From Bilabrum cf. latius (taxonomy: Eukaryota), in the NCBI GenBank assembly GCA_965178125.1, contig OZ237755.1:496001-560000 (forward strand): DNA of 64,000 nucleotides, given 5' to 3'. Below the pieces are notes generated by a model. The model was not told the origin of the DNA, searched no databases, and saw only the letters and a program-made list of their open reading frames with translations. The translations under genes were made by a program, and so were the position numbers. The number at the start of each line of letters is the position of its first letter. The first letter of the stretch is position 1. Below are positions 27,401 through 64,000 of the stretch, one piece after another.

Positions 27401-29857
27401 CGGTAGGTGCGTGGAGCGGCTCGCGGAAAGGACGGCCTTGGGAAGGGCAGGCTGCTCGATCCGAGCTTGCTGACTAGCTCCATTACCCGCGTGTCGAAGG
27501 GACGGGGCTTCCAACGGGATACCGAGACCCCAGACGACAGCAAGCTAGGGGAGACCTCGTCGTCGCAGGCCACGACCATGTCCCAGCTGGACGAATCCGT
27601 GTCTCGGTTCTGCATGAGGCTTGGCCGCTCCAACAAGGTGGGTTCGATTATCTTCTTGACTCCGGAGCTTGGCAAGTGGAGCACAGTGGGCGGGCTGGGA
27701 GTGATGGTTGACGAGCTTACTATCGGTCTGGCCGCGCTTGGAGTGGACGTGCACGTCATCAGCCCGTTTTACAACGTCAACCGGAAGGGCAAGGGTGACT
27801 ACCTGCGTCCAGATGGGATCCTCTACAGCGGTTCCAACGTAGTGGTGCAGGTTGGTGCCGAGCGCGTTGAGATGGGCGTGCACAGTGGCGAGATCAACGG
27901 CGTGAAGCTCCACTTTTTGCACCACAGCACCATCTTCCCGCGACCATACCCGCCGAACGATGCAGCGGGGCAGATTAGGGTGCTCTCAGCGTACGCGCGA
28001 GGCTGTCTGCAGCTCATGTGCGACAATGGCATCCGTCCTGACGTCGTTGTGACGAACGACTGGTTTACGGCGCTGGCACCTGCCTACGCGCGCCAGGGCT
28101 TTTACGGTCCGTTCTTTGACGGCACGGACTTCATCCACATCGCGCACAACCTGGACTCGTCCTACGAGGGGCGGCTCTATCCTCAACCGGACCAGGGAGC
28201 GTGCGGGTGGATTCACGAGCTGCCAGAGCACTTGCTGGTGGACAACACCTGGGCAGACGTCGTCGTCAACCCGACTCGATGCGCTCTGCTGTCATCGGAC
28301 TCATGGGCCACAGTGTCCAGGAGTTACCGCGCTGATCTTCTGTCTGGCTCCGCTGTCAGGCACCTGCTCCGCCTAGCACCCCAGCCGTTCGCCCATCCGA
28401 ACGGAATCCCAGTGGCCCTTCGCGAGAAGCGGCTTGTTAAGCTGCCTGTAAGCTTGCACAACGACGCCAAGGCCATCCTGCAGCGCAAATACTTCAACAT
28501 GTCCCGGCCTGATCCGAGCATCCCCATGTTTGGGTTCGTAGGGCGCATCACGCTGCAGAAGGGGATCCACCTGGCGCTGAACGCTGCCGATGCTCTCATC
28601 CAGCAGTACAAGGGCAGGATCCAGTTCCTTGTCGGGGGCATGGCCTCATCCACTGATACCTACGGCATGGCCTGCGCCGCAAAGATGCGAGCCCTTGCTG
28701 CCAGGCATCCCAACTGCTTCTGGGCCGACCCTACCGCGTTCTTCACCGACGGAGACCTCGTAAATTTGGGCTGCGATTTCTGCATGATGCCTTCGCTGTT
28801 TGAGCCTGGAGGCATCGTGCAGCAGGAGTTCTTCGTGGCCGGCACGCCTGTCATTGCGTTCAAGACGGGTGGACTAAAGGACACGGTTATCGATTTCGAT
28901 CCGGAGGCCGGTACCGGGTCCGGATTCACGTTCGAGTCTCACACGCCGCACGACTTCATGCAGGCGGTGCGTCGGGCCATCAACGTGTTCCGATCTCCCG
29001 GGATGTACGACGCCCTTAGGCAGTCCGCAAGGGCTTCTGTCATGGACCTGTCCGTGGTGAGCTGCGCGTGGCATGCCGAGTTCCACCGACTTCGTCGCGT
29101 GACGGTCGCGCCGACTGCCGTCAGTGCCTCCATGGATGCCGCTGATGGGCACCCGGATCCTCTAGGCAAGATGGGGGAGGAGTCGGGGGCCGCCGGTGGC
29201 GGTGCAGGGGCGGCGCAGCGGGCTCCGCCTGCGGACGGCTGCAGCCGCGATGGCACCGTGGTGGTGGGCAGGCTTGCGGCTGCCAGTGAAAGGAACCTGA
29301 CGATCGGAGGACGGGCTGTTGCTGCAGGCGTGGGCGCATCAGCAGCCGAGGCCAGGTCGCAAGAAGCAGCGCTCGTCGAGTTTTGGCTCCCTGCTGCCTC
29401 AGCCTCCGGCGCGACTTCAGTGGAGGTGACCGGGAGCTTTCTAGACTGGTCCTCCCGCGTCAAGCTGCACAAGGGTACCTGGAGAAGCGGCTCGGTGAGG
29501 CAGCTTGTGCTGGCGGGGAGCAGCGGTGCGGCCGTCCCTGGAGGAGCGGGTGCTCGTGGTCCTGGTACTGCAGAGGACGGCTTCTCTGGCCTGGCCAAGG
29601 TGGCCTGCGGCACTCACCAGTACAAGTTCGTGCTGGACGGCAAGGACTGGATCGTTGACCCCGGCGCACCGTGCGCGACCGATGCCGCGGGTAACGTGAA
29701 TAATGAGCTGACGGTGTCCCCGATGGATAGGTCGGAGCGGCAGAGCCATGAGGCGCAGAGGCTTGCCCACAAGGAGACCAGCATGCTGTCGGGTGCTTCT
29801 GCGGCAGCAGGGGAGGAAAGCGATGCTGGTGATGAGGAGGACGATCTGATGGACTGA
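21448..29857 (+). CDS. Multidomain alpha-glucan (glycogen/starch) synthase: alpha-amylase-like region + GT5 + CBM48-like domain (exons 21448-21569, 21697-21790, 21915-22029, 22161-29857; ~2675 aa)
   Basis: GT5 motifs WSTVGGLG, VVTNDW, HIAHN, GFVGRITLQKG, MPSLFEPGGIVQQE and KTGGLKDTV. C-terminal VEVTGSF..HQYKFVLDG..GNVNN. Seven in-frame TAGs (21987, 22934, 24287, 24824, 24827, 26807, 27404). Ends in TGA. Confidence 0.8.
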
Positions 29858-33000: not shown

Positions 33001-36000
33001 GCCAGTCTCCGATCGCTTCGCCGACTCAGACAGTGACCGGTGCGAGCAGGCCAGGGTCCAGTCGGCCCGGCTCACGGCCTCACAGCCGTGCCACGTCGCG
33101 TTCAGCGATACAGATCCCAGGTTCGCCGGTAAATCTAGCAGACGTTGGATTGGCCGGGCCCTCAAAGGCAAAGTATGAGGATCTCGAGGTCGATGTGGCC
33201 CATCCCGTGGCTGAGCAGCTGGTCGAGGACATGGACACCATTGGCGGCATGGACGTGCTGCAAGGCGTGTCTGACGACGAAGAAGGCGCGGAAATGGCTG
33301 CAAAGGATGCGGAGGTGATGTATGTTGCATTGGCAGCAGCACCAAAGCAGATTCAGGCTAGGGAACTGAGAGGAATCTTTGGAGGTGGCTACGGTCAGAG
33401 GTAGAGGCGGCGCCGGAAGAGAAAGAAGACAGCTGGCGGGGCTACCGCCGGTGGCACAATCAACCAGGTGAAGCCCTTGGGCAGTTCCGCGAGCAGCCCT
33501 GCTCTGGTCCAGGAGACCACATTATCTCAGAGCAAGAAGATCCCATCCAGCACCGTCTCGAAACGAGCACGCGATCGGGCCCGGTTCCTGAAGCGCAAAG
33601 CCAAGCGAGCACCGCCGCGGGGAGCCGGGAAGGTGCATGCAGCCAGGGGGGGCTCGGCCTTCCTGGTGTCCGACACATCCGCTGAGCAGGCCCGAAAGCT
33701 GCAGGAAATGCAAGAGGCTGCAGATGCGTTGCCTGAGCGGCTCAACCAGGCCTCTGAGGCAGCGAGGGTGGAGAGGGTTAGGATCAAGAGGCAGGGCATC
33801 CGCGATGGGGACGAGCGGATGCGCGCACGAGCACGAGCGACCGAGACTTTTGTGGGGAAGCAGTGGAAGGCGACGGCTGCGAAGATGGGACACAAGGAGA
33901 GCCATCGCAAGGGCAGGGTGCTCCACGGCAGGTCCTAGTTCAGGAGGAGGTCTTCTGTGGGTGACGTGAAGGACATCCAGATGGCCCTGGAGTCCTAGAA
34001 GCGGTATGGCGCCGGACATGAGGCTGTGAAGAGCCTGGCATCGGAGCTCGGCGCAGAAGACGTCTTGGCTCGCAGCAAGGGGGGTGCTTAGGTTGGCTTC
34101 GAAGTCACAGGTACAACCCGCCTGAAGGGCACGGGCACTCTCCAATACGGGGAGGGTCTGCCCTGGGAGCAATGGTACGGTGACAGCAAGACCAAGGGCT
34201 CGCTCGAGACCAACGCAACGAAGAATTTCCGCTCGGCGCTGGAGGGTCGAGCTGCCATGCGCGTTGGCGATGAAACGGGGCTGGAGTCCAGAGACTCGAG
34301 CAAGCCTGGCACGGGCGAGGGAGCGCATGCCGACGACGAAGAGCACGCAGAGCTCCTGGGCCGAACTGTGCACAGGGGCGAGCTGCTTCGGTCGTCCTCC
34401 CCGGTACTCGAGGCGGCCCTGAGAGACGCAGAGCGGAGGCGGGCGCAATCGCCCGGACTGGGCACGTCCCGCAAGTCCCTCGTCAATGCAATCGGGGCGC
34501 AGTCGACTGCAAAGATCATTGCGGAATCGCAGGGCACAAAATCTCCCTTCGATGAAGCAGACTTTGATCAGAATGACGTGCCGGCGACTCGAGGCAGCAA
34601 CGCCCGGTCGCAGTCACCGCTGGCCTTCGCGACCTAGTCCGGCTCGCTTCCCCACTCGATGGCACAGTCAGGCTCTGACAGCGAGCATGAGATCAATCGG
34701 GGCGCTACCCCAGTCCGCCGCAGAGAGCGATATGAGGACTCTAATGGAATTGTGCGGCGCGTAGTAGCCACACCAGTACAGGGTAGAGCCATTCGCAAGG
34801 CGGAAGGCATCCATAGAGAGGGCCGACTTGTCGCCTCACAGCAACGGGAACAGGTATCAGTGTTGGGCACTCGGCGTGGCGCGCAGCAGCAACAGCAACG
34901 ACAGCAGGGGTATTTAGCAGCAAACCCACACAGATCGGCTGGTCCTCTTCGAGGGAAGCGAGACGAGGACCCTGTCCGAAACGCGCGCAGGATGTCCAAC
35001 GCCTACCAAGACGTCACAGACGCGAGGATGTCCACCGGATCCACGCCTGACGCCCGGTTGCCAAGCACTCGCAGCAGCGAGCTGTATGAGGACCACTCTG
35101 CAGAGCACCTCCTGAAGTTGCAGAAGCAGCAGTAGCAGCAGCCAGAAGAGGTCAAGGTGATCGGCGGCGGGAACGGGCTTCCACGAATCGTAGCAAATCC
35201 GCAGGGCAGGCCAGTCGCCGAAGTAGTGCCGCTTGAATCGGCACAGCACTATCAGATGCACTCCAGACCTGGCGCCGGAATCACGGGTGTGCCCAGCAAT
35301 GCAACCTGGGATCTGCAGCAGGTGCAAGGGCAGCGCAGCAGGCTGCTGGAGGCTTTGTCAGAAGTTGACCCGAGAAGGATGGCAGAATCACGTTCCCGAC
35401 CACCCGTTGGTCGTGTGCAGCCGGCCTATCATTCTGAATTGAGGAGTCGATCTCGACCTGTTGCATCGGGCGCCGAGCTAGGCTCAGGCCTTGGTATGTC
35501 GCGAAGGCCGATTGACGAGCGGATGGCGCAGTCAATGCCGCTCAGCTCACAAGGTGAGGTAAGGCTGCATCATTCGTCACTGTCAAACGGTGCGTCTGGC
35601 TCTGGCGACGTTTTGGGCAACCCAGATGCTTCTATGCGAGACATGCTGAGGGGAACTGGTAGGCCAGACATTGATAGCATGTCGGCTCGCGATCCACACA
35701 GGACACGAGGGTCAAGGTACGCCAACGAGGCAGCTGCAGCTCGGACTAAAGGCGAGGCGTATTTGACAATGTTTGGCTGTCAGAACTAGCTGCCGGGCGA
35801 ACAGGAGCACAGCCGCCTTGGCTCACCAAGCAGACCGGCTGTGCAGCGTTCACGCAAGCCGAAGAGTCCGCCTGGAGGCCGATCTAGGCCGCGAGGAAGA
35901 AACCAAGCAGATGCTGGCCAGGCGCAGCGAAGCAGTCCTGAAGGTGGGTTCTGGGGCAAGCCAGCGGTGCGCGACAGCCCTTCGAACTCTCCGTCTCGGG

Positions 36001-44900: not shown

Positions 44901-46150
44901 CGGGCATGATCGATAAGATGCTTCGGTGGGACTTCAATACGCTCCAGTTTGATCCGGTCGACCTGGTACCGTGCCTCCTGGAGATGCTGTGGCACCTCGG
45001 CTTGGTGCAGTAGTTCGACCTCGAGCCCGATAAGGTTCTCAGGTTTTCATGGAACGTTCGACTGAGGTACCGCGACGCGAACCCCTACCATAATTTTCAG
45101 CATGCGGTGTCCGTGGTGCACGTATGCTTCCTTGCGTGCGCCCACTCTGCGACTGCTCGCTCCGTGCTGCAGCCGATCGACAGGCTCGGGCTCATGCTCG
45201 CCTCTTTGGCACACGATCAGGCGCACCCTGGGCACAACGCGAAGCTGGAGCAGGAGACGCTCTCGCGGCTCGCTATCCGATACAACGACAGCAGCGTGCT
45301 GGAGAACCACCACGCTGCTGTGCTCTTTGATCTGCTGCAGCGTCCCGGGCTCGACTGCATCAGCGGGCTCGACGTTCAGGACTTCAAGCGATTGAGGAAG
45401 GTGGCCATCACTGCGATTCTTGCGACCGACATGGTCAAGCACAACGACCAGGCCAAGCGCGCTGACGCAATCGCGCCACCACCGCCTGCAGCGGACGAGG
45501 TCGCGGCAGATGGCGACGGTGCGGCTGAAGACGGTGCGGCTGCAGGAGACGGGTCGGAGGAGTCGAAGAGCAAGGGTGCTGGGGGATGCGCGGCTGCATC
45601 CGATTCGAAGGTAGCAGGCATGGGAGACCCGTTCTGCGGAGTTCCCAGCTGCAGCGACGAGAAACGCCTCGGGGCATGCAAAGCCATCGTGGAGGGCGCC
45701 TTCGGTGGAGAGAAGGGCTCGGATGGCGCTGCGGAGCTGGCAGCCCTCATCCTGCACTCGGCAGACCTTTGCAACCCCGTGCTTCCTCGGTTCGAAGTGG
45801 TGGAGGACTGGGCCTACAGGGTGTGCAAAGAGTTCACGCAGCAGGTTGAGGAGGAAGAGGCTCTGGGGCTCGAACCTGCGCCTCACATGAAAGGGCTTGA
45901 TAACCTGCTCGCCATCAGCAGGTCGCAGGTATTCTTCATCATGTACGTCGTGGCCCCGCTTTGGACTGCGATGAGCCTAATTCTGCCCGAGTTCGAGTCG
46001 GCCAGGCTGTGCATGGAGCGTAACAGGGCGAGGTGGAAAGCGGTCTGGGATGCCGAAGAGGCTAAGGCAAAGGAGAAGGCCGCGGCTGAGGAAGAGGACA
46101 AGAAAATCGAAGGGACGGGGCCTGAGAAGGTAGAGGCTACTGACAAGTGA
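38925..46150 (+). CDS. Class I cyclic nucleotide phosphodiesterase with two GAF domains (exons 38925-38952, 39072-46150; ~2368 aa)
   Basis: GAF motifs (ADRVSLF, GVVGHVA, DAYKDSRFNAEIDKQTGYKTTSILCVP, INK, FTKEDE). PDE motifs NPYHNFQHA, HDQAHPG, LENHH, LATDM, HSADLCNP and EFTQQ. Nine in-frame TAGs. Ends in TGA. Confidence 0.9.
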
Positions 46151-47459: not shown

Positions 47460-50400
47460 CGTGCAAGCCCTTAGAAGCGTTTCAAGGGTCAGAACTCTTC
47501 TTGAAGACTAGGTGATGCTGGCGACCATTAATGGACGAATACCTTTCGAAGTGAGAACATAGTTCATGGGATGAAGAAACCATCTACATCGCGGATTCTC
47601 CAGTCTTAATAACTACTGTAGTACCGCTGGCTTGGACTAGCAGGGAATACTACACGGCGTATCATGCCTTGGAATGGCTGCCTGGCACGGCAATGTAGAA
47701 GTAGCAGACTTATTGATTGCGAAGGGAGCTGACATGCAAATTAGCAACTAGGTGAGCAAATGATGGGCAGAGCGTTCCATCCGGAGGGCCTTAATCGTTA
47801 GACTAGTTCAGTTGCTTCGTTCAGAACCGCAGAGGGGTGACATGCCCTTGGCGATTGCTGCTTGGCGCGGCAATACACGATTCGTAGACTACATTATCGG
47901 CAAGGGGGCGAACACTACAGCAGTCAATGCAGTGAGCCACGATTTGAAACTGATTTTAATTCTTGCTTCACAATCGCTGCTAGATTTGTCAAAGTCAATG
48001 GTCTTGCCAGTGAAGTGGTCGCAGCATGAAGCAAACGCGCTGCATGTCGCTGCTTGGCGTGGCCGCACGGGTGTAGTGAACGCTCTCATTAGGCATGGTA
48101 TTGATCTTGAAGCAGTCACCATAGTAAGCTTTTGATTGTAGCTATGTAGCACTTCATATCGTCCACTTTCGAATTCGGATCACGCTGCTGTATTGATTGT
48201 GTGAATGACTATCTGAGGAAGCAGAATGGAACCACGGCTCTGGGTCTTGCTGCTTCGAATGGACATGTAGACTGTGTTGATACCCTTATCAATGCTGGCG
48301 CAAGTATTGAAGCGAAGACTAAAGTGAGCCCGTCTATGAGACCGTCGTGCCCACAGTTGCAGCTTCCACAAGCCAAAATTTGTCTGTTCATTATTCAAGA
48401 AAGCAGAGTGGATCTTCTTGCCTACATCTGGCCGCCTGGAAGGGGCATGCCGACGTTATCGCGAGATTGGCTGCTGAGGGCGTTGACATAAACGTTGAGA
48501 ACTAGGTGAGTACAAGAGCTCAGAAGCAAGGCATACTGTCTAGGAATTGAGTGCATTTCTTCACCAATGGTAATCGTACAATTTTTGCAGCTATGTTCTA
48601 CGCCTCTGCACTTTGCATGCAAGAGAGGCAAGGTGGCTGCTGCTGCGGCGCTGCTTCTGCACGGCGCCGACACCACTGTTGAGAATGACGAGTACTTTGT
48701 GGAAGGTACCCGCCCGGCAGATGTTATTCCAAAATCCGCTCCACATGGTATGAAACAAGCAATGATAAGGGGCGGAGAGTCGTCAGACCTATGCCTGCAC
48801 TGGCTGCTCCAGATGTGTGACGAAGAGGAGCTTCCGTGCAGCAGCATCGTTGATCCAAGTGAAGTGGCGCAGAGAGTACTGTCGGTCTTGCGAGAAGATG
48901 GCATGCTTGGTGGTGATCCGAAAGTTTCGAGGCGGTTTGCTCTCCCTCTAGAGTTGATTGTAGCATTGGATCGGTTCAGAGCTTAGGGACTTCAAACTTC
49001 TGTGTCGGCACTGAAACTAGCTCAGGCAATGGCCTCGGCTGAGGATGTAGCTGAGCCTATAAGACATGACGAGGCAGTTCGCTCACGGGCGTCTCCAGAC
49101 AAGCCTATATCTGGAGATTTGATGGCTCACCACCCGAAGCTTCGGCGGCTGGCTCGCCCTCCTGGGGCCGACAGCAGAGTGCAGCCGTAGTTGGACCCAG
49201 CCAGCTAGGGCAGTTCAAGGATCTTGGAACGACTCGGCACGCAAGAATGCAGCTGGTTGCACGTCATCGAGGGGGGGGTTAGTCAAAGAGCAGGAGGTGA
49301 CGCAACAAGGCTGACTGCGTCGCAGCGAGGTCGGGCAAGGCCATTGTTTTGGGACGGGTCCCAGTACGGAGCTGTAGGCAGTGATGTGGCGGCGGAGCGG
49401 CAGGGTTGCAACTCGCTTGTATTTGCCGTAGAATCCACTGGGAAAGATCCGTCAAGCTTGGAAGGTTGTCGCAGCCCATGGCGCGAGGGATGGCAGGGCG
49501 TCCTCAAAGGTGGAATTCCTGTAGGTGCCTCCGCAGACTACTATTCTGGGGTGGCTCAAAGGTAGTAGTAGGACTGGTTGCTTCCAGGTGTCGTTGGCGA
49601 AAGGAAGGATAAGTATGGCGAGGTAGTGCTGGAAGGTCACCCGAACGTCCTCCAGGTGCATCACAGCTGGCTGGGCTCCACGCAGCTCATGCTGCCGTGG
49701 CTGGACTGGATGCAGCGGCGTCGAACTACATGGACATTAGCCGAGAGGTTCCCCACCACACTCAAGGGTGCCGCTGCGGCGTCTCTCTCTGATGGAGGTC
49801 CCGGATTATCGTGTCGGTAGATGGCACTTTGGCTGCTGCAGGTGCTGCAGGGCCTGGAGCACGCCCGGTCTCGCGGGGTGGTGCACCGGGACGTGAAGGC
49901 GGACAACGTGTTTCTGACGGCAGATGGAAGGGTTGTAGTCGGCGACTGGGGGGAAGGTTGTCTTTTGTACGAAGGGGGCCTTCGGGTACGAGTCGATGAG
50001 ACCCTGGCAGCCCGAGTTCGACTGCAGCAACTGGATGATGCGGCAGCCGATGGAATTAGTCAGCCTGCTGGTGATCCCGCCGTTGTTGATGCTGCAGGTG
50101 GAGACGCTGCTCCCTCGAGTTCTGATGGAGAAGCTTCCGTCTTCTTAGCAGATCCCGTGCCAGAAGAGGAAGAAGAGCGGGTTGACGAGCCTGTCCATCC
50201 TGAGCCGCTGTTCATTGGCGCGGGAGACGGAGTCAAACCAGAAACGCTTGCTTCGAGCATGTTGATGATCGTCGGGGGGATGGGAGCTCGGGCACCAGAA
50301 GTTTATCACAGGGCAATGCACAAGGATGCACTCGATGCTTGGGGAAGGCCGATAGAGACCCTGGCGCAGATCTACGCTTCAAGCGACGCGTGGGCTGCTG

Positions 50401-51569
50401 GGCGGATGATATGGGAACTTTTTGCGACGCAGGCGCTGGCACGGGGTGGATCAGAGGCGAAGCTTCCGCCGCCTGACTCGCTGTACGCGGACAAACTGAT
50501 ACCCCCGCTCCCTCGAGAGTCGGGGTGTTCCGCAGGTCTCGAGGCTGTGCTGCGTGGCTTGTTGTAGGCCAATCCAGCCCATCGGTTGCCATAGAACGTA
50601 GCCATTGACTCACTACATTGGATGCTTTACGGACGCGCGGGGTCTGCTGGTTCTCCTTTGTCCAGCTGGATTGGGGACCAGTAGAAGTGCTTCGCCGATG
50701 CGGATCTAGCTTTGGCTCCTCTTCCAGTGGCAGCCCTAGTCGGGATGGAGATCGGTGCGGATGCATCAATCGAGGCTTCAGCTCGAGTTGGCGAGCCAAG
50801 TGTGCCTGCTGCCAGCGGTGCTGGCGCTGATCCACCGCGTGAGGAAGGCAGTCGTGACAGCCCGATGGAAAGCTTTTCGTTGTAGGAGGCTGACCGCTTG
50901 ATTCAACATGCAGTACAGGCATCAGCGGCAAACCTGGAGCCCTCCGTGTCAGCAGACAATTCAGGGCAGTTAGCTCAAGGGGAAATTGCGGCTGGTGTGA
51001 GAGGCATGTCCATGGGCAACGTCGGTGGTCATAGGTTTGAAGGCCCAATGTGCAAAGCGATAGGGGCTGGCGTGCTCCAGAGCAGCGTTGATGCAGAAAA
51101 GGCTGTGATTGTAGCAGGGCCACTGGCTTCATTGCGACCGCCAAGTGCTGGTACGAGAGCCCTATTCGGTTGGAGCGTGAAGGGTGTGCTGGGGCGCGTG
51201 CGCCCGCTTGTGGAAGGTGAGGCGTCCATGTGGGATAGGCAGTTGAGACGGTAGTTTTTTCAAAAAGATGATGTCCTTGAGCACGTACAAGGGTGCTGCA
51301 GAGCACACGAGCAACTGCTGGCATGCTTCAAGGTCGGCGGTGCTGGCCAATGGGATGGGCCGAGAAATGGGAGCTGGGTCCCTGCAGCTGATGGCTAGAC
51401 TCCTGAGTAGTCACAGTCTCTTCCTGAAGGTTGGGTGGAAATGCATGGCCCCGGTGGGGAGGTACTTTACTGGAACCGCGTCACAGGCTAGACTTCGTAG
51501 CATCGGCCAACTGCTGGAGGGGCTGGCTCTGTCGCAGGTAGCGCACCTGCACCTGCACCACCAACTTGA
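47460..51569 (+). CDS. Ankyrin-repeat + divergent protein kinase + WW-like domain protein (multi-exon; 5' end unresolved, possibly from ~46772)
   Basis: Ankyrin exons 47644-47751, 47833-47931, 48025-48123, 48225-48323 and 48407-48505, then a long exon 48591-51569 with HPNVLQV, HRDVKADNV, DWG, APE, DAWAAG and LPEGW..YWN..TG. About 18 in-frame TAGs. TGA at 51567-51569. Confidence 0.75.
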
Positions 51570-51974
51570 CTGTGTCTTGAATCCGATGGTCGGACTATTA
51601 CTGTGATTATTTGTAGCATGAGATTCGCAAAGCACATGTGTAGACCCGTTGCCTCCAGCGAACGGATGGCTCACTTAAACGGGAAGCTGTCCGGACCCTC
51701 CAATCTGGAAAACAAGACTATTATTTCGCATGCGACCACGGGCATCCTTTCAAGTTGCGACCCAAGCTCCTCGACCCCCGGGCCGGCGGTCATTCGGTTA
51801 GAACCGCTGAACCCAACGGACCGAACCAAACTTTAAAGTATTGATTGTGAGGTTAGCGATTCTACATCAGATTAACGAAAATTGGAACTTTGTTCAATAG
51901 TCGCTGCGCTAGGGCAACTCCGTCCCAGATTCGCTGTGTAAGTGAGCAAAAGTGGCAGCAACTCTGAGTGCAGT

Positions 51975-54320
51975 ATGGACTCCAGGCCGCCACCTCCAAC
52001 TTCAAAGTCTTCGAAGAAGAAAAAGAGAAAATCGGGAAAGAAGAAATTGTCAATAGGCTCAGACAGCCCCGCTGATCAGGAAGCACAGCCTAGCAACCCG
52101 CGCCCGCCAACCAAGCAGCCGGGCGATGCAACTGCAGGGAGCAGAACGGCTCATCCACCTGCCACCAACGGTGCAGCTGTGAAAAAGAAATCCAGCAGGT
52201 CCAAAAGGAAGCGCAAGTCGAGTACGACCGCTAGGCCACCCCGCCCGCCTGGCAGACAGACTGCGCAAGCTGCCACTCCGGTAGAGTCCCAAGGCAGCAT
52301 CAACGGTAGCGATTCTGAGTTCAGCGAGGTTGAAGCGTACGCTGAATCTAGTGATGTTGACGGTACATAGCAATGGGACGGGCCGAGCGCGAAGCCACCC
52401 CCGCGACCACCAACAACGACTAGCAAAGCGCCCAAGACGAAGCGAAAGGGAGCCAAATCAAAGGCGAGCAAGGGCAAGCAAGGGAAGAAACGAAGCAAGA
52501 GAAAGCTAGCAGAGCATAAAACAGGCGATGACAGCGATAGCGATGGCAAAGATGGCTCCGCACCAGTTGGCGATGCTGAAAAAGCAAACGGCAGAAGCGC
52601 GTCGTTTGTCGATTCCGATGACACGGACCACGAGTCTAGAGACGGAGCCAACGGGTCCGCGGAGGGAAAAGGAGTAGATGCAGGCGTGAACAATGAAGAG
52701 TTTTCAAAGAAGCAGGAAGCACAGCGGTAGGCCGCTGCAGCACAGGAGGCGGAGCTCGCCAGGCTGCCGCCCCATCGTCGCGCGGCCTTCGAGCGAGCGA
52801 GAGAAAGAGAACGAATGGATGCAGCCAGCGCAAGCGCCCGCCCTGCCCATGGCATTCCGCGGCAGCACGCAGTCGAGTCATTCTCTGGCATGGGCCCCCG
52901 CTCCCAAGCACCCCTATCCCTTCCTGCTCGAGGCGGAAGCTACCGAGCCAGCGGTCGGGAACAGCCTCGGGGGATGCCAGTGGGTTTGCCAGAGCACCGA
53001 CTGCCTCATGCCGGCGCGTCATCTCGCGGAGTGGTGCCTCGCGTCGGCTAGTATCGCGCTGGGTATGCCGGTCATGGTGATATTTCCAGGCAGCCGGGCG
53101 GCAAGCTGCCAATTGCAAGCAAGCAAGGGGCTGTGGATCCCACGAATCCGGAGGCAGTAGGCATGTTCGGCGGACACAATCGGATGTATGCGGGGGGTAC
53201 CCCGTCCTCCACTCCTGCTGCTCCGTCTTAGTTCGGCACGAGGCCAGGAGGACCTGCGCCGCTGCCGCCGCACCTCCGAGCGCGAGCCGGATAGAGCAGG
53301 ATCCCGTACTCTGGGGCGGCCGCTGCAGGTCCTGGTGCTGGCAATGGCAGCCGCATGGACGGTGCATCAGCTGCTCGTGCGCACCAGACGGCTGACCCTC
53401 ACTATTACCCTGACACGGAAGCGGCTGAGTTTCCGCAGGGACGGGTCATGGGGAACAGGGGCGCGGTCGATCCTGTGTTCCCTGACCGGCAGGTGCCTTG
53501 GACACCCCCGCCGCCCAAGGACCTGATCGAGGCTCAGGACTGCTGCTGCTGCCGGTGCGTGTGCCTGGACGACGACCCGGAGCCGAATTAGGGATGCTGC
53601 GGGCCGGCCGCGACCAATGATGTGCCCCTGTGCCAGTGCCCTTTGCTCAAGCCGGGGCAGGCGTCAAGGCACCTGATTGATCAGTACTTGCCTGGTGTCA
53701 GCGAGAGCTTGGACAAAGACGGATGCTGCTGCGCGCAGCAGGATTGCACCTCGGTGCAGGATTGCTTGTGCTGTCCTGTTGCGTTCAGCTGCAGGATTTG
53801 CGGGTATGGGTGTTTCTGTCCTTGCCAAGACGAGTCGGATCGTCTGCTTGGCTGCGGGCAGGCCTGGCTGTTGGTCCTGGCGGCCGGGCTGATCCTGACA
53901 CTGTTCCTTGCAGACTCTTGGCAGCTACTCGTCGGCCTGCTCACCCCACTGATCTTCTGCATCGCTTGCGTTGTTCCCTGCGTGCAGCTGCCGTACTGCC
54001 TCGGCTTGGAGGAGCCGGAGCATCAGGCGGGCGGGGTGGTGGCCGCCTGCCTGTCCCTGACCATTCCCCTGACCGTGGGACTGGTGCTGCTGGGGGCTGA
54101 CGTGAGGGATGGCCAGGAGGAGGGGGGATCGGTGGGCAGCGGCCCCGGGGCTATCGACATGTCGACGGATAGGGAGTTTGGGGAGGCTTGGGTTTGGACG
54201 ATCGTCGCTCTTTGCTTGCTTTGGGCGTGCCTGATTCCGTGCCTGCGTTCGAGGGCCTTTGCGAGCGCCGCTCATTTCTGCCGCGTGTCCGTGTGCGGGC
54301 ACTGGGGGGGTGAAGGGTGA
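51975..54320 (+). CDS. Hypothetical protein (~781 aa): basic/low-complexity N-terminus, Cys-rich region, ~4 C-terminal TM helices
   Basis: One frame through TAGs at 52368, 52728, 53049, 53229 and 53589. CC/CxC clusters followed by hydrophobic helices. Ends in TGA. Confidence 0.6.
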
Positions 54321-54525
54321 GATTGGTGTGGAAGTTACCGTGACAAACGATGAGATGATTCATCCAATGCAACCATAGAATGTGTGTGCTGCAGCGTAGA
54401 TTCGTTGTATATGCAGCAGTGCAGTGTGCAGCTCGACATCGCAACTGCACTGCACTGAAGCGCGTATCCTCCATCACCGGGATCCCCTAGTTGGGCCTCC
54501 AGTCATTTGCTTGATACTCTGTAGC

Positions 54526-55724
54526 ATGCAGCATGCCCGTGATGCTGCGAGACGTGTCTTGGACTAGTTAATGGGCGAGAACAGGGACGGAGATATGGAC
54601 GACGTGGAAGTGAAAGTGAGAGAATCGGGTTTGGCTGCCACAAGCTGCGTCTTGGGACCAAAATCTGCCGCCACTTTGAGTACTTCCCTGACTTGAATCC
54701 GCAGGACTGGAGAGATGAGCGAGTATGTAAGCCTAACTTGATTGACGGCTGCGTGCACGATCTATTCAGCAAAACAACGTACGACCAGGGGCCATGCCCT
54801 AAGCTGTACTGTGGCGAGCGAGCAGATAAGTGGAAGCGCATTTTCCTGGAGCAAAAGCAAGCCGGTAAGGTTAGTGCTCGCGAGCTGGGCATGATGGAAG
54901 ACGAAGCAGAGGGGCAGATGATCCGATTCGTACGAAACGAAGTTGATCGTCGAATTGAGCGAGCCATGACGAGGACTGAGGCCGCCCAGAGCGCTTTGGA
55001 AGTACTAGATGTCGAAGCCGTGCCAGAGATTGCTGCCATTTCCAAGCAAATCGATGAGAAAGAAGCAGAGGCCGAGAAGGCAGGCGAGGAGGGCGAAGTC
55101 GACAAGTCGCGAGCCCTGCTCGACGAGGTTGCGCACCTCCGTCGGGAGAAAGCGTCGGCAGTGTCGGCAAACTTGGCGCAGCAGCGAGCTGCTGTTGCAT
55201 CTGGCCCGCTTGCGCGCGCTAATCCGCGATCGAACGAGCCCTTCTTGCGTGTGTGCAAGGCTTGCGGGTCCCTTCTCTCGATCAAGGATGCAGACGACCG
55301 GCTGGCCGAGCACTTCGAAGGCAAGGCCCACACGAATGTCGTGAAGGTTAAGACGAAGCTAGAGCAGATGAGAGAAAGCCGCAGGTTGGGGCACGGTGGC
55401 GGCGCGTGGAACCAGCAGCGCCAAGGATTCGGAGCCGGGGGCGGAAGCATGCGCGCGAGCCTGATCGGGGGTACGGACGAGCGGCGAGGGGGTGGGGGGG
55501 GAGGGTATCGCGGCCGCCCCTTGCACGAGGACGACCGGGGGCGCATGGGTCCCGGGCCATCCTCTGGAGCTGGAAGCAGCAGCAGTGCACCGGCCCCAGC
55601 ACACGGCGCTGCTGCCAGCGGTGTGCTGCCTGGGGGTGTGCCACCAGCCGTGCCACCCGCCCCGCCGGCAGCACCTCCAGCTCCAGGCCCTCCCCCGGCC
55701 GTGCCGGGGCCGCCACCGAGCTAA
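54526..55724 (+). CDS. LUC7: LUC7-like U1 snRNP splicing factor (exons 54526-54615, 54705-55724; ~369 aa)
   Basis: N-terminal DAARRVLD[TAG]LMGENRD. First zinc-finger region VCKPNLIDGCVHDLF..T..DQGPCPK. Second finger LRVCKACGSLLSIKDADDRLAEHFEGKAH. Ends in TAA. Confidence 0.88.
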
Positions 55725-55856
55725 TTGATTGATTGTTTGGTTGAGATTTTGTGGAAGTCAGCGACTTGCTGTGTTCGTGACAGCAGCGTATACCAACCTC
55801 CTCGAACACCTCTGATCAGCTCATCCACTTTATGTCTGCTCTCCGCTCTGCGCCTA

Positions 55857-58656
55857 TCACGCGCGGCTGCCTCGCTGTTGGCCCATCGCACTCGGTGTCC
55901 TGATCCGATCGTGTCCCAAGCCTCCCGTGCCTGGCACGGCAACTTCCACGGGCCTGAACCCAGACAGCCTAGACTCACCACGCTGCGTGCTTGACCCCCT
56001 TGATCCTGCACCTGCATGCAGTGGACCCGCACCTGCACCGGCGCGCCCGCGGGAGGCAGGCATGCGTTCTGCCGTGCGTCTGCCCCCGAAATCGACCTCC
56101 ACGCCATCAGCGGGAGCTGCAAGCGTGCCGCTTGAACCTGCTCCCAGGCTGCTGCCACTGCGTCCATACCCCACAGCAGAATCCCTGCCCCGCTAGTCGT
56201 CACCAAGCTCGGTGCCAGAGCCGGTAGCGGGCCAGTATCCCGCACCGATCGCCTGAACATCACCATCACCACCGGGGCCTGCGCTGCTGTCACGCCTGCC
56301 CACAATGGTAGAATCACGGCTGCCCCTCGCCCCCCGGTCTGCAGCACCCAGGTCGATCTAACCGACGTCTCCAAGCTCATCTTCACGCAATCGATCGCTC
56401 TAGCGGATCTCTTCTTCTTCTTCCTCTCGAAGCTCTTCTGGGGATGGGCCAGAGTACGCGTAGCACGACACGATCGTGAAGTCTCTCCCGCACGCCACTG
56501 CCCTCGGTCTACCGCGGCCCACGCCATCCACGAGCCGATCGAACGCATCGACCCTCTGCGGATGTGCGACAAATTCATCCGATACGTCCGCGCCCAAGCA
56601 GCCGTACTTGTTGCTACCCCACGTGTACAGCTCGCTCTCATTCGTCAGTATCGCGTTGTGCGTCGGCCCGCACACCAGCTCCCTCGCTGCAACGCCCAAC
56701 TCCACCAGGCCTGGCATTTCGAGAGGGTAGGGCGATGCGTGCGTTGCATCACCAAGACCCAGCTGGCCCTGCATTCCCGTGCCCCAGGCGTGCACGTATC
56801 CGCAATTCACGAAAGGGGGCGTCTCGACGATACACGCAGAGTGCCAGGTGCCGCAACCGACCTGCAGCACGCGCTCCCCCTCCAGCGCCGCGATTGGCGT
56901 GGGCAACGGCCTGTTCTTATTGTCGCCGTGCCCCAGTTTGCCCCCGCTGCCGGACCCCCAAGAAAACACCGGCAAGCTGCACCCGTCGGCCAGCACGAGG
57001 CAGTGGCTCGCTCCGCAGCTCACCTGCAGCACCCTCAGCACCTGCGGCGGCACGCTGAGCGGCACAGGAGCACGGTCTGGAAGCACGTCTCCGTCAAATT
57101 GCGGGACTGGATTGGGTGTAGGGAAGTATCGCCTGTACTGCAGGGGGACTCCTTTTCGCTCCGTGGCTCCGATGCCGAGCCTGCCTTCCATCGCATTGCC
57201 CCAGCTGAGGATCTTGCCACTAGCAGTGGTGACGAGAGTGTGCGAGTGTCCCGCGACGGCTTCAATGATGGGCTCGCCCTGAAGATTTTCCATCAGCTCT
57301 GGCTCTATGACCTCATCAAACGTACCAAGCCCGCACTGCCCATACCGATTCTGTCCCCAAGTGAACGTGTCACCACCTTCCGATACAGCCACTACATGCC
57401 CAGCCCCAGCGGACACCTAAACGATGGCTTCTCCCCTTAAGCGGTCTATCTGGACGGGATAAAGATGCTTGTTTCGCTCAGACCGCGATTTTTGGGTCTG
57501 GTGCACGGCAGCAGCACTTGCTCGGTCCAAGGTGCTCCCGGCAGCATTCCACTTCGCTGCGGCGCTCGGCCCTTCTCTGTCAGCGCCGTTAGATTGTATC
57601 ATGCTGCTGCTACTGCCTGTGATTCGTGGATCTGCCACGCCACCAGTTGGGACGCCACGAATGCCAAGCTGATCGACAACCCCGGAGCGGACTGGTCCGT
57701 CCGGGTGCCTGAATGGATAAAGCTCGTTGCTGCGATCGCTTCGGTCTCCCGATCGCTGGCTATTCGATATTGCTCTTGAGTTGCTTGGATGGGCCGATCC
57801 CCGGAGCAAAACGCCCTTGATGGACCCATCCCCTGCTGGAAGCATCAGTCGCCTTCCAGCTGCCAGTGGCTGCTCCTTCGCCTCGGGTCTGAGAGCCGCT
57901 CCAGCTTGCCGCCGCCGATCGCCTGCTCGCATTTGAGTGTAACCCAAGGGAGCCTGACCACCGCCTCCCCACGAAAAGACTTCTTGCTGGTCGGACACAG
58001 CGACGCAGAAATCCCCAGACTGCGTCAAGAGAAACAGCCGTGAACTGTGTTTCTAGGCGTATGCTGGATAAACCCACCATTGAGCGCGCTGCTATTCTGT
58101 AGTTTGTGCCCTACTCACGGCAGAAATCATATCAATGTTCTTTCCTTTTAAGCCTGGGATGCATGCGAACGACTCTCTCGGTAAGCTGTCCCCAAGTCCG
58201 ACTGCGAACGAAAAGGGTAACATGGAGCATTTTCAGGCTAGTCAGTCTAATGGTCTGAATTGTGAGTACGTTGATGTGCAGCTCCTCACGCTACCCGGTG
58301 TGATTTACCCCAACTGCATACGTGCTGCCGGCCTGCTCGAGCAACGTGCCGGCTTGTTGCTTCGCGACACGGGCAGGCTCCACGCCAAGCTAGTGTTCAA
58401 ACTTTGCCTAAATCCAGTCTAGTAGTCTTTCTTGCAACTCAAGCTTGGTACCATCGTGAGGCAGACCCCTCCTTTTCAGATTTTCGGCAAGGCTGCGGCG
58501 ATTCAGCTCCCTCAGACTCGACTTGCCGGTCAGCAAGTCGTCATCTTTGAGGATCCCCGTCGGTTTAGTGTACCACGGCTTCTCTTCTGCTCGTCGCAGC
58601 TGCCTGTACAGTTCCATGCATTCAGCGTGACCAGGAATTGTGCGAGCACGCCGCAT
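55857..58656 (-). CDS. RCC1-repeat protein with an N-terminal SAP-like motif (introns 58202-58289, 58020-58118; 5' end approximate)
   Basis: SAP-like LAENLKRRGLPHDGTKLELQERL. Multiple RCC1 repeats (WGQNRYGQCG, QVSCGASH, GQLGLG). TAGs at 58408, 58390, 58291, 57417, 56400 and 56193. TGA at 55857. Confidence 0.85.
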
Positions 58657-58832
58657 GCTCGGAACGGACGGAGTGCACTAATCACATGGCGACGAACACG
58701 GCGAAATGCAAAGTGGACAGTCAGCTACTGTGCAGTCTCTCAATTCACAATCTTGTCTGCGCCGTCCCGCCCCCTCCCTGCCCATGCCCGTGCCCGTGCC
58801 CCCTGCAGCACACCAGCACCGCCGGATCGCCA

Positions 58833-59597
58833 TCAGTCGGCTTGGAACGTCGGGCCAAGGCACACCTCTCGAACGCACACGTGCTTGGGCGCGAGAGAAG
58901 CGTAGATGATTGCGTCAGCCACGTCCTTGGGAACCAGTGCCTTTGATTTGAGGCTTTCCTTCTTCCATGCCTCGTAGCCCTCGATCACGCCAGGGGTCTT
59001 GCTGTGGCTCAGCAACTCAGTCTCGACCACGCCCGGGGAGATCACCACGACGCGCACGCCCTTCTCGCACACCTCGGTGCGCAACACCTCTGAAAAAGCG
59101 TGCACGCCAAACTTCGTGGCGCAGTACGCCGCGTGGTTTCCAAAGGCCTTGCGACCAGCGATGGATGACACGTTCACAATCACTCCATCCTCTCGCTCGC
59201 ACATGCCCTTCACTACGGCGCGAGATCCATTTAACGCGCCGAGCACATTGACCCTCATCATGGCTTCCCACTCAGCAGGATCTTGATCCATCACAGATCC
59301 GAGCTGCATTAGACCGGCGTTGTTAATGAAAATGTAGGTCGGGCCGTACTCCTTTTCGGCTTCCTCAACGGCGGCAGAAATCGCCTTCAGGTCAGTCACA
59401 TCAACTTTCTTGCACATCGCCTTCGGGAGCTTCATCTCCTCCATCCGCTCCAGGCGCCTAGCCAGCAGCAGCAAAGGATGCCCAAGACGGCTGTACGCCT
59501 TAGCCGTCTCAGCTCCGATGCCACTTGACGCGCCTGTAATTACCACGAGACCTTTAGTTTCACTTGCTTCAACTGATGCGTCCCCCACGGCTGCCAT
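58833..59597 (-). CDS. Short-chain dehydrogenase/reductase (classical SDR)
   Basis: Motifs TGASSGIG, NNAG, NVSS, YCATK and ISPGVVET. Intronless. Ends in TGA. Confidence 0.92.
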   Translation of the reverse strand: MAAVGDASVEASETKGLVVITGASSGIGAETAKAYSRLGHPLLLLARRLERMEEMKLPKAMCKKVDVTDLKAISAAVEEAEKEYGPTYIFINNAGLMQLGSVMDQDPAEWEAMMRVNVLGALNGSRAVVKGMCEREDGVIVNVSSIAGRKAFGNHAAYCATKFGVHAFSEVLRTEVCEKGVRVVVISPGVVETELLSHSKTPGVIEGYEAWKKESLKSKALVPKDVADAIIYASLAPKHVCVREVCLGPTFQAD

Positions 59598-59889
59598 CTT
59601 TCCTTCCTGTACCAAGCAAATGATCTATTGAAGCACCAAGGATCGCACTGCACTTCAGGACAAGTTAAATCGGATTCAACACGCAACATTAAAGCGCCGC
59701 CGACCGAAACGGCACTGCCATAGATCTAGCTCTGTGAGCCTGTTTTTTCGATGTGATTCCCTCGATACGTTCACGTGACAACCCTGCCACGCAAGTCGGC
59801 CCCATGGATCTAGCACAGCTGCTGCCAGACCACGAACTTTCCGGAGCCAGCCCTGCACCGCCCAACAGCTTGGTCGTGCATAGTAGATC

Positions 59890-62817
59890 ATGATAGTCCT
59901 GGTAGACGGAACACAAGCTATTTCGTTCGAGGAGCGAGCAAAGAAAACTCGTGATGGTTCGAAGTAGCGTTCAAAAAACGATTTTCCTTGGTTTGCAATA
60001 GAACTGGCACCAAAAGGAATCATGAGCCTATCGGTGGCCCCGATTCCGCCACCGTAGGGTTCTAGTTTGTAGCGATCGCGATCCCTTGCGTACGCCTCGC
60101 GGTATGGAGTTTCCGCCCCGCCTGCAGAGGCACCGGAAGGTGCAACTAGGGATAGCAACGACGTGTCCGGCCTGCCTGGCCTCCAATCTGCTCGCCGCAA
60201 AGCGGAATTTCTGTCGCTACCTGATAAGCCGTACGGAATCGATCAGCGTCCGCCTGGGGAGGGGGTACGAAACAGGTGGCGAGATTCGAGCGGCCAGGCA
60301 TATGAGCAAGACCCCTTCCCGAAACGCGTACCGCATCAATCTGCTTCCATTGTCGTAAGCAGTTTTGCTAGACGCACGGAGTAGCTCTTGGCTGTTGAGC
60401 CGAGGTTCGGCTGGCTGATGTACCTTGTTCCGTTTGTAGCTGCGGGCGCGCATCCGAGCGCGTCTGCCTGCGTTTCGTGCCACGAGATGCTTGTCCAGGC
60501 CGAGCATCTTGCAAAGCTGTATGGAGACTATGCTGGCGCACTGGCAATGAAGGAACTTTACTCGAGTGCGCCCTGGCCTCGCCTCGCTCGCGCAAGGAAG
60601 CACGCCGCGGAGGCAGTGGCGAACGCTGAGCGGTTGGCTCGCATTGCTGCTCGAGCGGCAGCTGCCAGAAAAGGCCGACCGATCTCAGAGAAAGAGGCAG
60701 ACGCAGTGAATGCAGGTGCTCTTGTTCCAGCCGAGGCACTCGCGAGGGCCGACCGTCTGGGGTGGAGCAGGGCATTCGGAGTTGACGCGAGTGTGCTGGG
60801 GGCTCCCTCCCCGCGGCTGCCGCTCACAGCAGGCGCGAAAGAGGTACAGGAAGAGGCCAGGAACGACTGCGCCAGGGTTGTGCTCCTGCCAGAAAGAGAA
60901 AAGATCCAGGGGATGGTGCGAGCAATGCGCCGAGCACTTGCTCAGCACTGGGTGGCCCGGGAGCAGGCTGCTCGCACTGCGCTGGCCGAGCAGGCGCGTG
61001 CGATCGCTCGAGCCAAGGCCCAGGCAAAAGCAGAGGCGAAGGCGGATGGAAAAGGGAAGAAGAAAGGCCGAGGCAGGGGCAGGAAGAAGCAGACCGCCGT
61101 ACCCGGCGCGGGGCAGCCGGGGCCAGTCCTCGCCAGCGGGACAGGAATGGGCCCAGATGGCCTACCGGACGGGTCGTCCCTGGTTGTGGGTGGGCTGCCC
61201 TTGGACCAGGTCTCATCGGTGTCTGCCGAGCAGTTTAGAATGTCGGCTGCAGACAGGGCTAGCCTGGAACCGGTGCGCGACACGACCGCGGAGGAGCGGG
61301 AATCGGGCCGGCAGCTCCTCATCGTAGACGGGACGGGTGCTCTGGATGCTGCGCTGCTGGACTGGATGCAGAAAGTACCCCCAGTCCCGGTGCCGCCATC
61401 AGACGGTGCGCTGGAGGGGTGCCCGATCGTGGCTGGGTTCGACTGGCTGCGGCAGGCGCATGAAAAGTGCAGCGAGCTGCTCTGGAGGGCGTGCAACCTC
61501 GGTGCTGCCTCATTGCACGCCAGCCTTGAGGCGGCTGGGCTGCTTCCATCCTAGCTGCAGCTGCAGCTGCAGATGCAGGACAGGCAGGGCGAGACACCCA
61601 GTAAATTAGCTGGTGCGCCGCCTCTGGCCTCTGAATCATCATCATCGAGTGCGGCATCCAAGGCGCACAACAGTAAGAAGGCTCGCCTTCCGGTCGTCGG
61701 TGCCGCCGCATTCAAGGAAGGTCTCGGTGCGCAGACTGGAGTGTTGGACGCTCTCCAATCTGAGATTAATACTGCCCGCAGTCTGCTTGTTGCTCGGGGC
61801 GAGCTGCACGCGGTTCCGCATTCCTACTTTGGAGTGCCCAGAGGTGCAGCAGAGCTGCTTGCGTACGCTGCTGGGCAGTCCACTGATGGGAAGAAGGGAA
61901 GGCCGAGTGAGTTTGGCGGGACTGACGAGAGCGAGGTGGTCGCGCCCCGGCTGCCTGTCGATGCTGACGACGATCTGCTCGAGGCGAGCGCGGCAGGGCC
62001 CGAGGACGCAGATAGGAGCTTGCTGTGTAGCACATCTGCTTCATCGCAAGCTTCTACGTCGGCTCTAGCTATAGGTTCCGCGGGTACATTTGGGGATGCT
62101 GGTGGGCTCGGAATCTCCCCCGCCGAGGCTCGTGAGCTGCTCGCGAGCGGCGCGCTGCTTTCGGGCGCCAGTGCAGTCGGATCAAAGCGGGGCAGGGAGT
62201 CCGGGCCACTTGCAGGAGCAACGGAGGCTGAGCTTGCTGCAATCAGAGGCGTGCTCGTCAATCTTGCTGCCATGGATGCTTCAGGACTCGGAAAGTTAAA
62301 GTTGCCTGTTGTCGTGCGGGGAAAGCAACTGGCTGAGGCCTGTCGCAGGTTGGGCGTGGATGAAGCGACGATTGCCCGCCTGCAGAACGCTTTTGTGCAT
62401 GATAGTGAGCATGATAGCGCAGATGCAAGGCGGCCCGCCAGCAAGCGTGCAAGGAGCGATGCCGATGCCGCGGCTGCTGGGGCCAGTATTGCAGGCGGGT
62501 CTCCCGACGGCCTGGCAGCCATTCAGGCCATCACTTCTACGGCGGCTGCCATGTACGGTGATCACTTCTGCGTGACACGGCGGCCGGCACAGCCAGAAGC
62601 ACAGGCGTCATCCAGTTCTGGTGCTGGGGCGGGCACGGCAGCCGCGAGTCGACCGACAAGGAAGGCAGCAAAGAGCAGCCGTAGGGCGGGTTCGCAGCCC
62701 AAACCGGTCACTGCAGAGGAGGCACGGGAGGCAGGCACCCGGGCGTTGGCTGCAGGAGGGGAGAGCCTCCTTGCGGCAGCTGCGGAGTTAGCTGGCACTC
62801 GAAGCGTGTTCGGCTGA
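59890..62817 (+). CDS. Hypothetical Ala-rich protein (start uncertain)
   Basis: ORFs 60163..60384, 60388..61554 and 61573..62817 share one frame, linked by TAGs (60382, 61552 and several upstream). Ends in TGA. Confidence 0.6.
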
Positions 62818-63035
62818 TGGATCCGGAGTTTGGATTCCAGATCTGGATCTGGGGCGGACTGCATCGGCACTGCGATCTAAATTCTTGATCTGAGGGTGAA
62901 CTTTACACCTCAAGTCAGTCATTCGCTCTGCTGGCTGTGACAGGCTGCACCAGCAAGACCATGCCAGTAGTAGCACTCTAACCATCTCAAACGCGTCTCG
63001 AACGAGGACTGGAGTGATCTCAGTTCTAAATTCCA

Positions 63036-64000
63036 TCACTCCTCATCCATGGCTGCCTGGGCCTCGTCCAGCTTGGCCTTGTACGCAGCCCACTGCTGGT
63101 GCGTCTCCTCGATGACCTCCTCCGCGAAGGCCCTGTTCTGGTACTCTTCCCTGAGGGCAAACTGGTTGATCTGGTCAGGGCTCTTGTACAGCCTCATCCA
63201 CTCCCTGAACGATTCCGAGGCACCGCTCGCTACGTCGATCACGTCATCGATGTCCTCCATCAATGGGGCCATGGGGTCCTCCTCGGCAATCCCGATGACC
63301 TTCCAGTCCGTCTCCCCGTCGTCGATCATGGCCAGAACCCCCAGAGGCTTATACCTCACGATCGCGCCCATGGGCCACTGCCGCGTGCCAATATCGATCT
63401 GCGAGTTGAACGTGAAAATTGCATGGAACGTGTTTACGTGTGTGCGTATTGGAATTAGAGTTGAACCGCGAAACAAGGAGTTAGCTAGACTTCGTGTCTC
63501 GAGTCTCTCACCACGTCAATCGGGTCACCGTCGCCCTTGTGCTTGGTGCGATGGTCCTCCACATCAGGATCCTCGTAGGTCTGCGGAAGGGCTCCATAAT
63601 TAAACATCATCTGCGACGAAGGCGAACAGACAGGGGGTTCGGCAAAGGCGGAGCGTGCTTCTGTCTGCACACGGCAAGATAGGATAGCTACCAACATTCG
63701 ACAACCCAGTCAGACCATCGGGACGCGGAACGCAGACATAGGCACGGCCGCCGATGCAAGTCTCACGTCTCCCCAGTGGTAATCCCTCAGCTTGCCCTTC
63801 TTGATGTCCTGCTTGATGGGGTTGAAGTCCGTCTTGGTGTCGATCTCCATCTTGGCGCGCGTCCACTTGGGGATCTCGCAGATCATGTTGAAGGTACCGT
63901 CCTCGTTTTTTAACGGGATATCGTGCCAAGGGGAGATCCGGTCTTCTGGCTCGCCCGGCCGCGTGCTCTTGAGGTACCCGACCGTGAACTCCTTGCTGGG
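63036..64000 (-). CDS. Soluble inorganic pyrophosphatase, family I (5'-truncated; introns 63611-63766, 63399-63511)
   Basis: Motifs [53 protein letters not shown] and IDDGETDWK. Ends in TGA. Confidence 0.93.

Follow-up and report, generated by a model that had tools for sequence, protein, structure and literature searches.

Nuclear codes in which UAA and UAG both specify glutamine (Gln, Q), NCBI table 6, are used by many ciliates, ulvophycean green algae, hexamitin diplomonads, Streblomastix and Amoeboaphelidium. Few lineages are known to have nuclear codes that uncouple UAG from UAA, namely Iotanema, Scotinosphaera, one rhizarian and a few of the ciliates (PMC11687900). According to the same source, UAG alone has passed to Gln in Iotanema spirale, Protocruzia tuzeti and two lineages of phyllopharyngean ciliates, and it stands for leucine in the rhizarian exLh, serine in Scotinosphaera and glutamate in an oligohymenophorean ciliate (PMC11687900). 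Here we analyse a 64-kb stretch of DNA from Bilabrum cf. latius (contig OZ237755.1, positions 496,001 to 560,000), referred to as the window and numbered from its first letter, and within it a minus-strand gene for a protein with a SAP-like domain and RCC1 repeats. An initial annotation of this gene, made from the sequence alone, had proposed that UAG is read as Gln. We conclude, with a probability of about 0.92, that UAG is a low-frequency Gln codon in the nuclear DNA of a GC-rich, stramenopile-like protist in which UGA and UAA still serve as stops, a pattern that matches NCBI table 15. UAG is transcribed, is neither spliced out nor edited and stands opposite Gln in alignments; genes end at TAA and TGA, and uncultured relatives behave alike. 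The proposal thus stands, on RCC1 grounds that narrow to one site, and we regard it as settled because database comparisons, other genes and the relatives agree.

The RCC1-repeat gene runs on the minus strand from an ATG at 58617-58615 to a TGA at 55859-55857, with two introns, 857 codons and seven in-frame TAG. Exon 1 (58290-58617), which carries the SAP-like domain and the start of RCC1 blade 1, is covered by a contig at 58290-58630 with 0 differences. Minus-strand positions 58320-58291 read TAT GCA GTT GGG GTA AAT CAC ACC GGG TAG, followed by C; the 3' end of the exon therefore consists of the TAG at 58293-58291 and the C at 58290, the first base of a split Leu codon. Intron 1 (58202-58289, 88 nt) has GT..AG borders (GTGAGG...TTCGCAG) and is followed by TC GGA CTT GGG GAC. 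Exon 2 (58119-58201, 83 nt) encodes (L)GLGDSLPRESFACIPGLKGKNIDMISA, and intron 2 (58020-58118, 99 nt), also GT..AG, would add two in-frame TAG to the gene if it were read through. Exon 3 (55857-58019) comprises coding sequence from 58019 to 55860 and the TGA, and encodes RCC1-like blades 2-7, a low-complexity insert of about 200 residues and an acidic, Gly-rich tail. The insert, at 57470-57950 on the minus strand between blades 2 and 3, has an open frame and is partly covered by an unspliced transcript contig.

Alignment to Pfam with X at each TAG, as the initial annotation had suggested, gave clear matches in exon 3 to RCC1 (PF00415; 1.5e-58, 195.6 bits in five stretches, cut-off 21.7) and to the RCC1-like domain WD40_RLD (PF25390; 9.7e-72, 242.7 bits, cut-off 150). 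The match of exon 1 to SAP (PF02037; 4.6e-5, 23.4 bits) falls slightly below its cut-off of 23.9, and orthologues are listed with PF02037. A search of a protein collection with exon 3 returned 73 homologues, the best named one being a Cafeteria roenbergensis 'SAP domain-containing protein' at 49% identity and with the same architecture. The nearest solved structures are UVR8 (3.8e-64) and the HERC2 RLD (9.4e-53). The protein shares with UVR8, the HERC2 RLD, RPGR, RCC2 and RCC1 a seven-bladed repeat and a G-Q-L-G-x-G-D loop; unlike them it has the SAP-like domain at its N terminus, about 200 inserted residues following blade 2 and an extended acidic tail.

We used contigs from three public sequencing runs (X1, X2 and X3), aligned to positions 48000-63900 of the window, to examine splicing. 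The joint 58201->58290, which skips 88 nt and reads CT..AC on the plus strand, occurs in a single X1 contig and a single X2 contig and is absent from X3. These contigs excise exactly 58202-58289 and keep the TAG at 58291-58293, giving YAVGVNHTG[TAG]LGLGD as the initial annotation had read it. The joint 58019->58119 is present in one X2 contig, in which the stretch from one joint to the other is exactly 83 letters long, the length of exon 2. X3 has neither joint and matches the window as plain DNA. A different splice pattern that removes the TAG had been raised as a possibility, but the only joints seen in this gene are those of the two GT..AG introns, and the TAG is exonic. One unspliced X1 contig (record 5) spans 55824-57783 without a gap and with 0 other letters, and ends 33 nt beyond the TGA. 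No differing letters were listed between the contigs and the window, and the X1 pieces have 0 other letters; there is therefore no sign of TAG editing, within what the contigs can show. With seven TAG codons, the gene at 55857-58617 is an ordinary one that is expressed and spliced.

We aligned the spliced protein with the 21 top-ranking homologues among the 73 and built a hidden Markov model (HMM) from 13 orthologues. The first TAG, at 58291-58293 (minus strand), occupies the place of Gln in the G-x-LGLGD loop of blade 1 and is retained in the spliced contigs. Fourteen of the 15 aligned orthologues have Q here and one has C, and under the orthologue HMM Q scores +4.0 bits over X, with R and K next at +0.6. 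This TAG replaces the nearly invariant Gln of the G-Q-L-G-L-G-D loop, and the initial annotation was right to place it at the Q of the RCC1 motif. The second TAG that it relied on, at 57417-57419 (minus strand) in the strand motif GEAIV[TAG]VSAGAGH, lies within X1 record 5 and in a variable column (A 4, S 4, Q 3, T 2, M 2, D 2, H 1 and E 1 among 19 aligned orthologues). The orthologue HMM ties Q and M at +1.1 bits, and the Pfam RCC1 scores are nearly flat, ranging from 95.9 to 101.6, with Q (101.6) ahead of D (101.0) by 0.6 bit and K at 100.7; this site cannot be used as evidence for Gln. The coordinates of both TAG and of intron 1, and the motifs around them, had all been given correctly. The sister motifs VLQVSCG, VLQVGCG and GQLGLG, offered as internal controls that need no database, are indeed present in frame, but the sister repeats by themselves are ambiguous: the six other blades have P, Q, R, K, Q and C at the G-x-LG position and M, E, Q, Q, E and A at the V-x-V position, that is, Q in two of six at each. 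The other five TAG lie in a pair just past the SAP domain (58408-58410 and 58390-58392, together 58390-58410), where columns are poorly conserved, and in a triple in the C-terminal tail (56400-56402, 56358-56360 and 56193-56195, together 56193-56402), within X1 record 5; all are on the minus strand.

Across the window, freeing TAG raises the number of frames of at least 500 aa from 8 (4,811 aa) to 18 (20,358 aa), compared with only 9 (5,461 aa) when TAA is freed. The TAG-freed frames include ones of 2889, 2607, 2369, 2015, 1552, 1019 and 1012 codons, each with 6-16 TAG, and carry kinase domains, a GT5 glucan synthase with a carbohydrate-binding module, GAF and phosphodiesterase domains, and a GT8 domain. 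In 16 long frames totalling 18,121 codons there are 93 in-frame TAG (5.1 per 1000 codons) and 0 TAA or TGA; CAG and CAA occur at 32.3 and 9.2 per 1000, and TAG makes up about 11% of Gln-type codons. The 15 long frames that end inside the window do so at TGA (11) or TAA (4). An NTM1-like frame ends in a TAA 6 codons downstream of its Pfam domain, and for this reason we take TAA to be a true stop. Frames for eIF4A, an SDR and a putative propionyl-CoA carboxylase beta chain, named by eye, end in TGA, with domains that reach almost to the frame end. A code of the table 6 type, in which UAA would also be Gln, does not fit this 64-kb window, since TAA bounds the long frames and never occurs inside them.

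TAG use is uneven among genes. The kinase frame at 48510-51566 (plus strand) has 16 TAG in 1019 codons. The eIF4A-like (2494-3828), NTM1-like (12641-13555) and LUC7 (54543-55721) frames, all on the plus strand and likely highly expressed, have no TAG. TAG looks like a rare codon that is avoided in highly expressed genes.

The rarity of TAG and its absence from these three genes could also be expected if UAG were ambiguous, i.e. Gln inside genes and a context-dependent stop elsewhere, or a stop partially read through by a normal tRNA-Gln(CUG). Codes in which the same codon is stop or sense depending on context are used by Condylostoma and karyorelict ciliates. No gene was seen to end in TAG; the frames were extended through TAG by construction, and a gene ending in TAG would therefore escape notice. 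Several observations make such ambiguity improbable nonetheless. With up to 16 TAG in one gene, three of them consecutive, partial readthrough would yield almost no full-length protein, and the homology of the kinase persists beyond its last TAG. The transcript contigs of the RCC1 and kinase genes stop 33-52 nt past the terminal TGA and not past a TAG. The base 3' of TAG (C 29, G 28, A 19 and T 16; n = 92) shows no strong bias and no context of the readthrough type.

We used homologue columns and profiles in other genes to examine which amino acid UAG specifies. The GT8 search provided 63 homologues; for the kinase gene (48591-51566) the best 150 of 1,881 representatives at E <=0.001 were used, with column counts taken only from BLASTP alignments with E <1e-8. 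The TAG at 5113-5115 (minus strand) of the glycogenin-like GT8 gene, LPFRANA[TAG]RTLHW, falls in a column with Q in 53 and L in 10 of the 63 homologues. In the kinase, the plus-strand TAG at 50565-50567 (EAVLRGLL[TAG]ANP) aligns with Q in seven of eight orthologues and gives XQQQ-QQ in the metagenomic alignment described below, and the three consecutive TAG at 49563-49571 (AQR[TAG][TAG][TAG]DWLLP, plus strand) align with Q in 9, 4 and 5 of 12 orthologues at successive positions. Of the 41 rows in the column of the kinase TAG at 49818-49820, 11 have E and 8 have Q, and the closest orthologues are among those with Q. With the TmcB-like giant protein as query, only two matches were obtained, both from Cafeteria, and no usable columns.

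For the profile sums, HMMs were built from homologues only, with long multi-repeat proteins left out of the kinase set, and all TAG of a gene were set to each residue in turn. Summed over 28 TAG in three genes, Q scored +31.1 bits, followed by K (+17.6), E (+10.8) and T (+10.4), with L at -12.1 and W at -27.6, and Q ranked first in each gene separately (+10.2, +5.0 and +15.9 bits). Applied to 17 ordinary codons as a control, the same procedure identified the true residue every time. The yield per site was 1.11 bits for TAG, compared with 1.24 for CAG and 0.63 for CAA. When TAG was set to each of the 20 residues in Pfam searches, Q was best for RCC1, GT8 (35.5) and GAF_2 (31.6) and second for GAF; the TAG at 45011-45013 in the phosphodiesterase domain lies outside the Pfam profile and hence carries no information. 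Codon neighbourhoods point the same way: one TAG sits within a CAG run (35121-35141, plus strand; CAG AAG CAG CAG TAG CAG CAG), and the frequency of Gln-type codons within two codons is 0.376 around TAG, 0.282 around CAG and CAA and 0.184 around other codons.

When metagenome contigs were scanned with the kinase, 19 loci were found, seven of which (L001-L007) are orthologues with 44-53% identity. Their frames are long and free of TAA and TGA and contain 2, 4, 17, 5, 6, 7 and 1 in-frame TAG in 483, 862, 1080, 650, 648, 639 and 259 codons, respectively. The eight-sequence kinase alignment includes columns that are all Q except for the TAG-bearing sequence (X), such as QQQQX, QQXQQ, XQQXQQ and XQQQ-QQ. 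Among 191 aligned partner residues at 58 TAG sites in the eight orthologues, Q is commonest (41), at 5.3 times background compared with 5.4 times for CAA, and is the sole residue enriched more than 1.5-fold; the commonest partner codon is CAG (33). The presence of TAG in all seven metagenomic orthologues means that the trait belongs to a group of uncultured organisms and is therefore not confined to one assembly. Gene callers using the standard code would cut the proteins of the host and its relatives at every TAG. The relatives' database proteins have probably been cut in this way, and the fragmentary state of kinase orthologues in databases may reflect it.

A number of observations weigh against the reading of UAG as Gln or limit its support, and some of them could favour another amino acid one anticodon change away (Lys, Glu, Leu, Ser, Trp or Tyr). 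The GT8 TAG at 5179-5181 (minus strand, GGDTGFLN[TAG]F) aligns with A in 42 and S in 16, together 58, of 63 homologues and with Q in none, which reflects either a genuine substitution by Gln or some degree of ambiguity. At the RCC1 gene, the sister repeats at the two TAG positions also offer R, K, C, E, M and A, and the TAG at 57417-57419 is a real sense codon yet uninformative on the amino acid. In the metagenomic orthologue L003 (L003:1538-4777), some of the 17 TAG stand in R, G or S columns (RRRXR, GGGXG and S-SX-SSS), which could stem from errors, a decaying copy or misalignment. UAG stands for Leu, Ser or Glu in other protists (PMC11687900). The evidence base is 64 kb of genome. In addition, the identification of X1 and X2 as RNA is only a tool's guess, and its label for X1 was 'probably DNA'; we take both as RNA because eight GT..AG joints in four genes occur there and not in X3.

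At its end (51387-51539, plus strand) the kinase has a weak WW-like domain, with four TAG nearby, that reaches at best 24.5 bits, below the Pfam cut-off of 26.9. Here T, R, W and Y score slightly above Q, and at the TAG at 51498-51500, the place of the model's second Trp, W (23.0) exceeds Q (21.5), which also weighs against Gln. We considered UAG = Trp on this basis and rejected it, and we give this TAG no weight because all scores lie below the cut-off with a small spread and the place is taken by T in one and A in the other of the two aligned orthologues.

Set against the summed profiles, a different amino acid is very unlikely. Over the 28 sites the lead of Q is 13.5 bits over K, 20 over E, 25 over S, 43 over L and 59 over W, by a method that was correct on every control codon and in which Q is top in all three genes, and the enrichment of Q alone among TAG partners in the eight orthologues and the TAG inside the CAG run favour Gln over all of these. 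That TAG is untranslated (a pseudogene, assembly errors, other splicing, or editing of the mRNA to CAG) can be dismissed within what the contigs can show, as we found no points in its support and it is contradicted by the only joints seen, which leave the TAG at 58291-58293 in the exon, by contigs that match the window letter for letter, by 93 TAG against 0 TAA or TGA in long frames with conserved domains, and by the same pattern in seven independent metagenomic relatives.

If UAG is read as Gln, the way in which it is decoded may be suggested by other lineages with this reassignment. By analogy with them, UAG would be decoded by a tRNA-Gln with anticodon CUA, which would pair with UAG and not with UAA, and eRF1 would have lost its affinity for UAG. 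According to the report on Iotanema, CUA is the anticodon required for reading UAG without UAA, a single mutation separates tRNA-Gln(CUA) from tRNA-Gln(CUG), and Iotanema eRF1 has T32G in the GTS motif (PMC5304391). No tRNA genes were found in the window or in eight related loci (L001-L007 and L009), and no Rfam family matched in the window. The window does not encode eRF1 either. The decoding mechanism is thus inferred, and these two absences, of tRNA genes and of eRF1, limit the support for our reading.

Several other features of the window were noted. The 2607-codon frame at 22034-29854 (plus strand) has a C-terminal GT5 starch/glycogen-synthase catalytic domain with an AMPK-type glycogen-binding module, preceded by about 1800 mostly low-complexity residues. 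Further GT..AG introns, supported by spliced contigs in X1 and/or X2, lie on the plus strand at 48124-48224, 48324-48406, 48504-48588 and 54616-54704 and on the minus strand at 63399-63511 and 63611-63766, the last two in a gene at 62.9-64 kb. These six introns are short (83-156 nt).

The named homologues come from Cafeteria for the RCC1 and TmcB-like genes and from oomycetes, ochrophytes and a labyrinthulid for the GT8 gene. On this basis the host would be stramenopile-like, above all near Cafeteria, a placement drawn from named best hits and not from a phylogeny. A search of full-text literature, with subscription journals and supplements outside it and the preprint part confined to code-table wording (bioRxiv, 2024 on), found no nuclear UAG reassignment in stramenopiles. 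A code that splits UAG from UAA seems to be unreported for this branch of life, although, with sequencing runs as recent as 2025, it may already have been described or be about to be. We lean slightly toward the broader view that a clade of mostly uncultured, GC-rich, stramenopile-like protists, comprising the host and at least seven relatives, reads UAG as Gln with UAA and UGA as stops. If this is true, the reassignment would be old and the first nuclear code change in stramenopiles, fixed in a GC-rich genome with UGA as main stop.

Codes in which UAG and UAA are uncoupled bear on the co-evolution of release-factor specificity and suppressor tRNAs, and a further independent case would provide a comparison point for the debate on codon capture versus an ambiguous intermediate. 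The present case is useful in that it comes from a different supergroup branch and a GC-rich genome, with genome and transcript data already in existence and environmental relatives that are alike.

Compared with known systems, the code of the window shares the change from stop to Gln with codes of the table 6 type, but differs from them in having 0 in-frame TAA in its long frames and TAA at the end of four of 15. Its uncoupling of UAG from UAA is shared with exLh, Scotinosphaera and the oligohymenophorean ciliate (PMC11687900), although in the window L, S and E lie 43, 25 and 20 bits below Q. In the fornicate Iotanema spirale (Panek et al. 2017, PMC5304391), as in the window, UAG alone is Gln, UAA and UGA are stops, and decoding is predicted to occur by tRNA-Gln(CUA), the same tRNA that we propose here. 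Iotanema, however, belongs to an unrelated lineage, Metamonada, and is known from a transcriptome, whereas the window is GC-rich genomic DNA with stramenopile-like genes and UGA as main stop (11 of 15). Protocruzia tuzeti and the phyllopharyngeans (McGowan et al. 2024, PMC11687900) are ciliates, a group in which code changes are common, and the available part of that paper names no stramenopile case; as described there, they have the same codon table as the window, reached by an independent origin.

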